Positions 3,739-5,718 of a stretch of DNA of 64,000 bases are shown here, in pieces. The position numbers and the translations under genes are program-made. The notes beneath the pieces are model-generated. The model saw nothing but the letters and a program-made list of their open reading frames with translations, did not search any database and had not been told where the DNA came from. Where the stretch lies: sequence record PQ666540; one strand, written 5' to 3'. This DNA is from Shigella phage sb2. The first letter of the stretch is position 1; the number at the start of each line of letters is the position of its first letter.

Positions 3739-5718
3739 ATGACTTTATTATCTCCGGGCATTGAGCTCAAAGAAACTACGGTTCAAAGCACCGTGGTTAA
3801 TAACTCTACTGGTACAGCAGCTTTGGCCGGTAAATTCCAGTGGGGTCCTGCTTTTCAAATTAAACAGGTTACAAATGAAGTAGATTTAGTTAATACTTTT
3901 GGTCAACCTACAGCTGAAACTGCTGACTATTTTATGTCTGCAATGAATTTCTTACAATACGGAAATGATTTGCGAGTTGTGCGTGCTGTCGATAGAGATA
4001 CCGCTAAAAACTCATCTCCGATTGCCGGTAATATTGAATACACTATTTCTACCCCAGGTAGTAACTACGCGGTTGGAGATAAAATCACGGTTAAGTATGT
4101 TTCAGAAGATGTTGAAACATAATGTAAAGTTACCGAAGTAGATGCTGATGGAAAAATTAAGAAAATTAATATTCCTACCGCAAAAATTATCGCTAAAGCA
4201 AAAGAAGTAGGCGAATATCCAGCATTAGGTTCTAATTGGACCGCGGAAATTTCTTCGTCTTCCTCTGGTTTAGCTGCAGTAATAACTCTTGGAAAAATTA
4301 TTACTGATTCTGGTATTTTATTAGCTGAAATTGAAAATGCCGAAGCTGCTATGACAGCTGTTGACTTTCAGGCAAATCTCGAAAAATATGGAATTCCTGG
4401 AGTAGTAGCTCTTTATCCGGGCGAGTTGGGCGATAAAATCGAAATTGAAATCGTATCTAAAGCTGACTACGCAAAAGGTGCTTCTGCATTACTCCCAATT
4501 TATCCAGGCGGCGGCACACGCGCATCTACTGCCAAAGCGGTGTTTGGATATGGACCACAAACTGATTCACAGTACGCTATCATAGTTCGTCGCAATGATG
4601 CTATTGTTCAAAGCGTTGTTCTTTCAACGAAGCGTGGTGAAAAAGATATTTACGATAGTAACATCTATATTGACGACTTTTTCGCAAAAGGTGGTTCAGA
4701 ATATATTTTCGCAACTGCACAAAACTGGCCAGAAGGCTTCTCTGGAATTTTAACTCTGTCTGGTGGATTATCATCAAATGCTGAAGTAACAGCAGGAGAT
4801 TTGATGGAAGCTTGGGACTTCTTTGCTGACCGCGAATCTGTTGATGTTCAGTTGTTTATTGCGGGTTCTTGCGCCGGCGAATCTTTAGAAACAGCATCTA
4901 CTGTCCAAAAACACGTCGTTTCAATTGGTGATGCTCGCCAAGATTGCTTAGTACTGTGCTCGCCACCGCGTGAAACTGTAGTTGGAATTCCTGTAACTCG
5001 TGCTGTTGATAACTTAGTCAACTGGAGAACCGCAGCAGGTTCATACACTGATAATAACTTTAATATCAGTTCAACTTATGCAGCAATTGATGGTAACTAC
5101 AAGTATCAGTATGACAAATATAATGATGTGAATCGTTGGGTTCCATTAGCAGCTGATATTGCTGGTTTATGCGCGAGAACCGATAACGTTTCTCAGACTT
5201 GGATGTCTCCAGCTGGTTATAATCGTGGTCAGATTCTTAACGTTATTAAACTTGCTATTGAAACTCGCCAGGCGCAGCGCGATCGTTTATATCAAGAAGC
5301 TATCAACCCAGTAACTGGCACAGGTGGTGATGGTTACGTATTGTATGGTGATAAAACAGCTACTTCTGTTCCTTCTCCATTTGATCGTATTAACGTTCGT
5401 CGTCTGTTTAATATGTTGAAAACGAATATCGGACGTAGTTCAAAATATCGTTTGTTCGAATTAAACAACGCGTTTACTCGTTCATCATTCCGCACAGAAA
5501 CTGCCCAATACTTACAGGGAATTAAAGCTCTCGGTGGAATTTATGAATATCGTGTAGTTTGAGATACAACAAATAACACTCCGTCAGTAATTGATAGAAA
5601 TGAGTTTGTTGCAACATTCTACATCCAACCGGCTAGTAGCATTAACTACATAACCTTGAACTTCGTAGCAACTGCTACAGGTGCAGATTTCGATGAGTTA
5701 ACTGGTCTTGCAGGTTAA
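3739..5718 (+). CDS. 18: tail sheath protein gp18, reading frame interrupted by two in-frame stops (TAA 4120-4122, TGA 5560-5562)
   Basis: Single frame 3739..5718 = 660 codons, matching T4 gp18 (659 aa); ORF track shows only fragments 3739..4122 and 4351..5562; peptide continues in frame across both stops; late promoter at 3703-3710. Confidence 0.85.

Follow-up and report, generated by a model that had tools for sequence, protein, structure and literature searches.

Why is the tail sheath gene of Shigella phage sb2 (PQ666540) split into two open reading frames, and do the stop codons that split it belong to the phage or to its sequence record? The stretch analysed here, hereafter the window, comprises 64,000 nucleotides, and its list of open reading frames cuts the sheath gene into pieces of 127 aa (3739–4122) and 403 aa (4351–5562), both of which we reproduced. 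The first-pass annotation had read one continuous frame of 660 codons across these pieces, interrupted by an ochre and an opal codon, and had likened it to T4 gp18, for which it gave a length of 659 aa. Translation of the plus strand gave this very frame of 660 codons, with exactly two internal stops in addition to the terminal TAA. Its colinear counterpart in Shigella phage pSs-1 is the sheath CDS of 1980 nt (YP_009110985), which matches gap-free and at the same coordinates, and the conceptual protein aligns residue by residue over positions 1–659 with residues 1–659 of the T4 gp18 structures 9mkb and 3j2m (phmmer, E = 0), which bears out both the continuity of the frame and the stated length.

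The identity of the gene is further supported by its domains, its neighbours and its relatives. Pfam searches with the three pieces of the sheath protein returned Gp18_domIII_N, Gp18_dom_I, Phage_sheath_domII, Phage_sheath_1 and Phage_sheath_1C, all above the cut-offs. Gp18_dom_I and Phage_sheath_1C are each interrupted mid-domain by one of the stops, which therefore do not act as domain separators. The gene order is that of pSs-1, with the terminase large subunit (gene 17) followed by the sheath and then by the tail tube (gene 19). About 600 Tequatrovirus records match the sheath stretch, ~580 of them over its full length and with a top identity of 98.1%, and nearly all of the ~600 carry a single CDS annotated for the sheath. 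The uninterrupted reading frame that is typical of the gp18 family is lacking from the gene as deposited, being broken by the TAA at codon 128 and the TGA at codon 608; the underlying gene is still classed as gp18, and its broken frame is best attributed to sequence error.

Both stops are present as first reported, in the contexts ACA TAA TGT (4117–4125) and GTT TGA GAT (5557–5565). Each arises by a single-base substitution (GAA>TAA and TGC>TGA) in a gene that is colinear with its relatives without gaps, so that the earlier reading of codon substitutions, as opposed to indels or gene boundaries, was correct. The alignment with homologous sheath genes that the first-pass annotation had put forward as a check places GAA and TGC at codons 128 and 608 of T4 and of all the intact relatives that were examined, and the corresponding T4 residues in the gp18 structure alignment are E128 and C608. 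The coordinates of these and the other altered features of the window are collected in Table 1.

Table 1 Altered genes, stop codons and clusters of private changes in the 64,000-nt window.
Feature	Position	Strand	Evidence or remark
Tail sheath gene (T4 gene 18 orthologue) with two substitution-derived internal stops	3739..5718	+	Full-length gap-free alignment; Pfam
In-frame TAA, sheath codon 128	4120..4122	+	G>T at 4120 versus GAA (Glu) of relatives and T4; also in Shigella phage sb1
In-frame TGA, sheath codon 608	5560..5562	+	C>A at 5562 versus TGC (Cys) of relatives and T4; private to the window
Three private transversions close together in uvsW (T>G, A>T, T>G; F23C, H24L, L26R)	17587..17596	+	Other allele in all six panel genomes
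Gene 30.3 orthologue whose frame is shifted by a 2-bp deletion beside 35135, specific to the window; a G>T lies adjacent	34854..35310	-	
Gene 34 (proximal subunit of the long tail fibre; 1290 codons) with two in-frame TAA	55695..59564	+	
Codon 856 of gene 34, turned in frame from TAC into TAA by C>A at 58262	58260..58262	+	
Codon 864 of gene 34, turned in frame from TCA into TAA by C>A at 58285	58284..58286	+	
Seven private changes of gene 34, clustered within 61 bp (C>A, G>T, G>T, C>A, C>A, G>T, G>T)	58262..58322	+	

The surroundings of the two stops were searched for in other sequences. The segment 4020–4220 around the TAA had no 100% match in 484 records, the best of which differed by one mismatch. 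No exact match was found for 30–31-mers across the TAA in IMG/VR, GTDB genomes and JGI metagenomes, nor for 30–31-mers across the TGA in IMG/VR; a wild-type control 31-mer also returned nothing from IMG/VR, and these k-mer negatives consequently carry little power. Five IMG/VR contigs that match the flanks were recovered with a degenerate pattern at codon 608, all five with TGC. Neither of the two sheath fragments (127 aa and 403 aa) nor the W12L portal had an identical protein on record when looked up. The change G129C in the codon that follows the TAA, which reads TGT (Cys), was considered as part of the same lesion and was set aside, as TGT is a natural allele also found in the clean phages UGKSEcP1, vB_SsoM_113, Killian, KNP5 and Ec_MI-02. 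Programmed readthrough or recoding was likewise rejected: the stops are not conserved, the relatives have GAA and TGC, and the TAA occurs elsewhere only in the error-laden record of Shigella phage sb1. The first-pass annotation had judged genome-wide recoding unlikely, and the sense codons of the relatives at both sites, together with the intact frames of most genes in the window, agree with that judgement.

The first-pass annotation had seen the stops as a feature of the sheath gene, a view that does not survive inspection of the rest of the window. When the corresponding 82 genes of pSs-1 were mapped onto the window, 79 proved intact (gene 37 runs past the end of the window, and gene 38, not counted among them, falls outside it). 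Over its whole length the window is colinear with pSs-1, at 95.7–98.0% identity, and its backbone is that of an environmental pSs-1-like phage, not of T4. Gene 34 carries two further TAA codons, and all four stops in genes 18 and 34 are G:C>T:A transversions that yield three ochre codons and one opal codon. The gene-34 stops belong to a cluster in which, relative to the closest relatives, seven changes produce two stops and five missense codons; at the background rate, the Poisson probability of such a cluster in the given span is ~7e-14. Within it, G>T and C>A changes are intermixed 5–16 nt apart on one strand. Targeted variation of the diversity-generating-retroelement (DGR) type was rejected as its source, as the changes lie at G/C rather than at A and include two stops. 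The two bases deleted from gene 30.3 are present in all seven relatives, including sb1 and sb4. Residues altered elsewhere in the window include a Trp>Leu change in both the portal and DNA ligase and a Cys>Phe change in 30.7.

To place these lesions among all changes of the window, base maps were made against pSs-1, KNP5, Ec_MI-02, KRT47 and 11B_SA_NWU (the five clean genomes), and later also against sb1 and sb4, and a change was counted as private when the window differed at a site on which the five clean genomes agree. This yielded 344 deviations. The 245 transitions comprised 204 synonymous, 34 missense and 7 intergenic changes and no stop, whereas the 54 G:C>T:A transversions comprised 9 synonymous, 36 missense and 5 intergenic changes and all four stops (Fisher p = 5e-20 for the contrast between the two classes). 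The transitions of the window look purifying-selected; the G:C>T:A class behaves as unselected. When every possible G>T and C>A change was enumerated in the intact orthologous genes, the random expectation was 79% missense, 11.7% stop and 9% synonymous. With its 36/4/9 split, the G:C>T:A class of the window matches this expectation and behaves like hits that were never filtered by selection, and as ~12% of random hits yield stops, four stops are expected from ~40–50 hits.

The clean genomes, treated in the same way, show no such excess. The G:C>T:A class makes up 15.7% of the private deviations of the window versus 5–7% in leave-one-out controls with the five clean genomes, and none of the controls (pSs-1, KNP5, Ec_MI-02, KRT47 and 11B_SA_NWU) had a G:C>T:A stop. 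By our own estimate from these percentages, the window contains an excess of ~35 G:C>T:A changes spread over ~25 genes, at a total density of 0.84 per kb for the class. On the plus strand, G>T (30) and C>A (24) are roughly balanced. The trinucleotide contexts of 42 sites lie near background (for example, CCG with 3 observed versus 1.2 expected, both small numbers), and no convincing sequence-context motif emerged from so few sites. Gap openings relative to pSs-1 are no more frequent in the window, sb1 or sb4 than in the clean genomes, and this lack of an indel excess fits a substitution-type artefact. Two sites illustrate how rare the individual alleles are. For the gp51 pair at 21938 and 22036, the best identity among ~500 phage records was 98.9%, equivalent to two mismatches, and the portal G>T at 7093 was absent from 497 records and present in exactly one, that of Shigella phage sb1.

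Phage sb2 was deposited as one of four lake-water phages from Kolkata (PQ666539–PQ666542), which are described as plaque-purified and propagated; library preparation started from 50 ng of DNA extracted with CTAB and involved enzymatic fragmentation and PCR, the sequencer was a NovaSeq 6000, and de novo assembly was done with SKESA (PMC11993411). The sister records are named sb1 (PQ666539), sb3 (PQ666541) and sb4 (PQ666542), and sb1 and sb4 correspond to ADG1 and TMC4 in PMC11993411. When counted over the same 64-kb region at clean-invariant sites, sb4 showed 678 deviations, 164 of them G:C>T:A (117 missense, 21 stop and 12 synonymous; 2.56 per kb), and sb1 showed 948, of which 290 were G:C>T:A (210 missense, 31 stop and 34 synonymous; 4.53 per kb). 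The class thus accounts for 24% of private deviations in sb4 and 31% in sb1, and the fraction of stops within it (14% in sb4 and 11.3% in sb1) is close to the random expectation. The annotations of sb1 and sb4 show split terminase, major capsid, baseplate and ligase genes; in sb1 the large terminase is in three parts and the major capsid protein in two, and the sheath is divided into 3739–4122 and 4351–5718, the first piece being the same as in the window. The record of sb3 is nearly clean, with an intact sheath carrying E128, G129 and C608 and with one private TTA>TAA in gene 34. As 31 stops in structural and replication genes of sb1 are incompatible with plaque formation, they must be errors in the record. 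These results show that the G:C>T:A signature recurs across samples of one project, with a dose that depends on the sample.

The sister records also share individual sites with the window. At codon 128, phage sb1 carries the very same TAA; its codon 608 reads TGC, and it lacks the gene-34 cluster. The sheaths of the window and sb1 differ at 54 other positions, and the block that they have in common around the TAA spans only 180 bp. The window has further G>T and C>A alleles in common with sb1 that are otherwise unique, and it shares otherwise unique alleles with sb4 as well.

Of the four explanations that the first-pass annotation had offered, a sequencing or assembly error is the one that stands, and the evidence speaks against a suppressor-dependent mutant, an engineered sequence and pseudogenisation. 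With a probability of about 0.9, in our estimate from the sequence comparisons, the sheath gene is an ordinary, functional-type gp18 orthologue and both of its stops are errors in the assembled or deposited sequence. There is no new biological feature in the sheath gene. The strongest competitor, which we nevertheless consider improbable, is that the G:C>T:A changes are real mutations of the sequenced DNA, caused by oxidative mutagenesis of the stock or contributed by a few damaged or defective genomes, such that the record describes a dead or defective genome. A specific and unselected class of change is as compatible with recent oxidation of G, in vivo or in vitro, as with an artefact; the window, sb1 and sb4 have some sites in common, as if inherited; and the mixed gene-34 cluster would be easier to understand if lesions on both strands had been fixed by replication. 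A lysate, however, is a population in which random lethal hits cannot become the consensus, and four nonsense codons in two essential genes (with 31 in sb1 and 21 in sb4) are at odds with phages that were plaque-purified and propagated (PMC11993411). The approximately five-fold spread of the load within the project also resembles a technical variable that differs from library to library.

Two further readings would keep the stops as genuine alleles. It is very unlikely that the codon-128 ochre is a real, tolerated allele of T4-like phages in Kolkata lake water, bypassed by readthrough or by a sheath made in two pieces (residues 1–127 plus a restart). The occurrence of the same TAA in two sheaths with so many other differences favours this reading, as does the position of codon 128 within domain I (Pfam Gp18_dom_I), which we take to be surface-exposed from the structure of gp18. 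Against it, 484 records lack an exact match and GAA is found in T4 and nine aligned phages, stops of this kind abound throughout sb1, and the 180-bp common block could stem from shared reads. The next in-frame ATG lies 77 codons downstream of the TAA, and a restart there would cost the protein half of domain I as well as the linker; moreover, the TGA at codon 608 would remove the C-terminal 52 residues, its position being inside Phage_sheath_1C. Least credible of all, with hardly any weight left to it, is a suppressor-dependent nonsense mutant, either a laboratory or engineered strain or a phage grown on a suppressing host. Stops in genes 18 and 34 do recall the classical conditional-lethal T4 stocks, and the frame is otherwise perfectly kept. 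Yet none of the four stops is amber, and three ochre codons and one opal codon need two different suppressors; the stops originate by transversion alongside ~35 excess changes of the same class, missense or silent, in unrelated genes; two of them lie 8 codons apart inside a seven-hit cluster; and the backbone is environmental and pSs-1-like, not that of T4. As for a phage-encoded suppressor tRNA, the window contains no tRNA gene and the ten tRNAs of sb1 all have sense anticodons.

A technical origin of the G:C>T:A changes is suggested by their signature, by the absence of selection and by their dose in the sister records. In this reading, the sheath stops are the nonsense tail of a layer of ~35 excess, unselected and locally clustered G:C>T:A changes that extends over the 64 kb. 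In AT-rich genes, random G>T or C>A changes would turn codons such as GAA, TAC, TCA and TGC into TAA or TGA ~12% of the time, and at this rate a handful of stops in long genes such as those for gp18 and gp34 is an expected by-product. Candidate routes include library DNA that was damaged or passed through a bottleneck, reads of poor quality or low coverage, and the bleeding of reads between related libraries or mixed lysates.

Oxidative damage has a documented counterpart. C>A/G>T changes are the signature of oxidative (8-oxoG) damage during Illumina library preparation, where they normally stay at a low allele fraction (Costello et al. 2013, PMC3616734), and they also arise from sub-optimal sample handling (Ma et al. 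2019, PMC6417284). Such damage could enter a consensus if coverage or library complexity were very low; fixation in the consensus is not expected otherwise and is atypical of this artefact. Random damage that arose independently in each sample cannot account for the G>T sites common to the window and sb1, including the codon-128 TAA, in sheaths that differ at 54 other positions; for these common sites, read bleed, mixed lysates or a site-specific systematic error would be possible sources. Damage confined to a single strand is opposed by the gene-34 cluster, with its close mixture of G>T and C>A. Instrumental sources were also considered. Spurious green signal in two-colour NovaSeq chemistry, supposed to convert G to T and C to A, is not supported as the cause, since the documented two-colour artefact is T>G, the reverse direction (PMC13218037). 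The G/T and A/C cross-talk of four-colour instruments (Dohm 2008) does not apply to a NovaSeq run, and long-read or homopolymer errors, or modified-base mis-calls with indels, were rejected for want of any excess of gap openings.

The value of these observations lies in quality control, as a data-quality flag for the window sequence and for the records of sb1 and sb4. The G:C>T:A layer inflates gene counts (295–301 annotated features versus 266 in pSs-1) and gives rise to 'hypothetical proteins' and private amino-acid variants that are not real, and any comparative or evolutionary inference from these records, including that of PMC11993411, inherits the errors. The approach taken here sorts private alleles by mutation class and into missense, stop and synonymous changes, and sets the outcome against both random expectation and leave-one-out controls; it amounts to a test that needs no reads. 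Such a test can tell erroneous findings of a 'broken essential gene' from real ones.

Several known systems resemble parts of this pattern. Classical nonsense mutants of T4 genes 18 and 34 carry a single amber codon (TAG), were obtained with transition mutagens and have a T4 background. They share with the window the in-frame stops in the same essential tail genes, but the stops here are ochre or opal, arose by transversion within a window-wide layer and lie in an environmental phage. Oxidative and handling artefacts of the C>A/G>T type have in common with the window the substitution class, an intensity specific to a sample or project and the absence of selection. The published ones, however, occur at a low fraction in reads, whereas the changes here are fixed in the consensus, recur in some cases at identical sites in different records and, in one cluster, show both strand orientations. 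Close counterparts are sb1 (PQ666539) and sb4 (PQ666542), which have the same pSs-1-like backbone and the same unselected G:C>T:A excess breaking essential genes; they differ in that the load of the window is 3- to 5-fold lower and that the codon-608 TGA and the gene-34 cluster are private to it. The gene itself compares with T4 gp18 (PDB 3FOA, 3J2M and 9MKB) and its Tequatrovirus orthologues, with which it shares a length of 659 aa without gaps, the same domains, the same gene neighbours and, among the Tequatrovirus orthologues, a DNA identity of 97–98%, and from which it differs in that the codons for E128 and C608, sense in all intact relatives checked, are stops in this record.

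The same class of truncation extends beyond the window to its sister records, which come from one sequencing project. Within the 64-kb region of homology with the window, sb1 (PQ666539) carries 31 stop codons derived from G:C>T:A transversions and sb4 (PQ666542) carries 21. The terminase, major capsid, baseplate, ligase, RNA ligase and nrdA genes appear as fragments in their annotations, and the records list 295–301 annotated features compared with 266 in the colinear Shigella phage pSs-1. Three mini-clusters of G>T/C>A changes are common to the window and one or both of these records (see table). 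Sites that recur in this way cannot be accounted for by independent random damage; they suggest instead that reads were shared, that a systematic error struck particular sites, or that the alleles are specific to a lineage.

Two further disrupted genes were found in the window. The gene 34 stop codons, which were absent from the first-pass annotation, are spaced 8 codons apart and sit among seven private G>T/C>A changes within 61 bp (window 58262–58322). In the gene 30.3 orthologue, a G>T change adjoins the frame-breaking deletion, which was present in none of the seven relatives, sb1 and sb4 among them.

Features of the window and their coordinates
Feature	Window coordinates	Strand	Description
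205-aa ORF	5759–6376	+	In the gap separating the sheath gene from the tail tube gene; PHROG 5104 (no assigned function)
G>T/C>A mini-cluster	8965–9043		gp68; also in sb1 and/or sb4
G>T/C>A mini-cluster	13706–13748		gp24 end; also in sb1 and/or sb4
G>T/C>A mini-cluster	23061–23072		gp27; also in sb1 and/or sb4
Gene 30.3 orthologue	34854–35310	-	Frame broken by a 2-bp deletion adjoining 35135
Gene 34, long tail fibre proximal subunit	55695–59564	+	Two in-frame TAA codons, 58260–58262 and 58284–58286

Directly 3′ of the sheath stop codon lies a G+C-rich hairpin (GTGGGGCTTCGGCCCCCT, window 5719–5745), which resembles an intrinsic terminator or an RNA-stability stem-loop. The 205-aa ORF beyond it, for which no Pfam match was found, is an insertion that varies among phages, whereas the rest of the late-gene block is fixed. 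It is carried by pSs-1, KRT47, vB_SsoM_113, sb1, sb3 and sb4; KNP5, Ec_MI-02, UGKSEcP1, Killian and 11B_SA_NWU lack it, with a sheath–tail tube spacer that is ~650 bp shorter. Window positions 1–25000 also matched, at 97.2%, a GenBank entry of 32 kb that is filed as Staphylococcus phage SAJK-IND (MG010123.1). Its stated host is S. aureus and its annotation lists T4-like sheath and head genes. The record appears to be mislabelled or contaminated.

In uvsW, three private transversions (T>G, A>T and T>G) fall within 10 bp (window 17587–17596), resulting in F23C, H24L and L26R at the protein level, while all six panel genomes share the other allele. This stretch looks like a further local error cluster, although its substitution class differs from that of the G>T/C>A clusters of the window.
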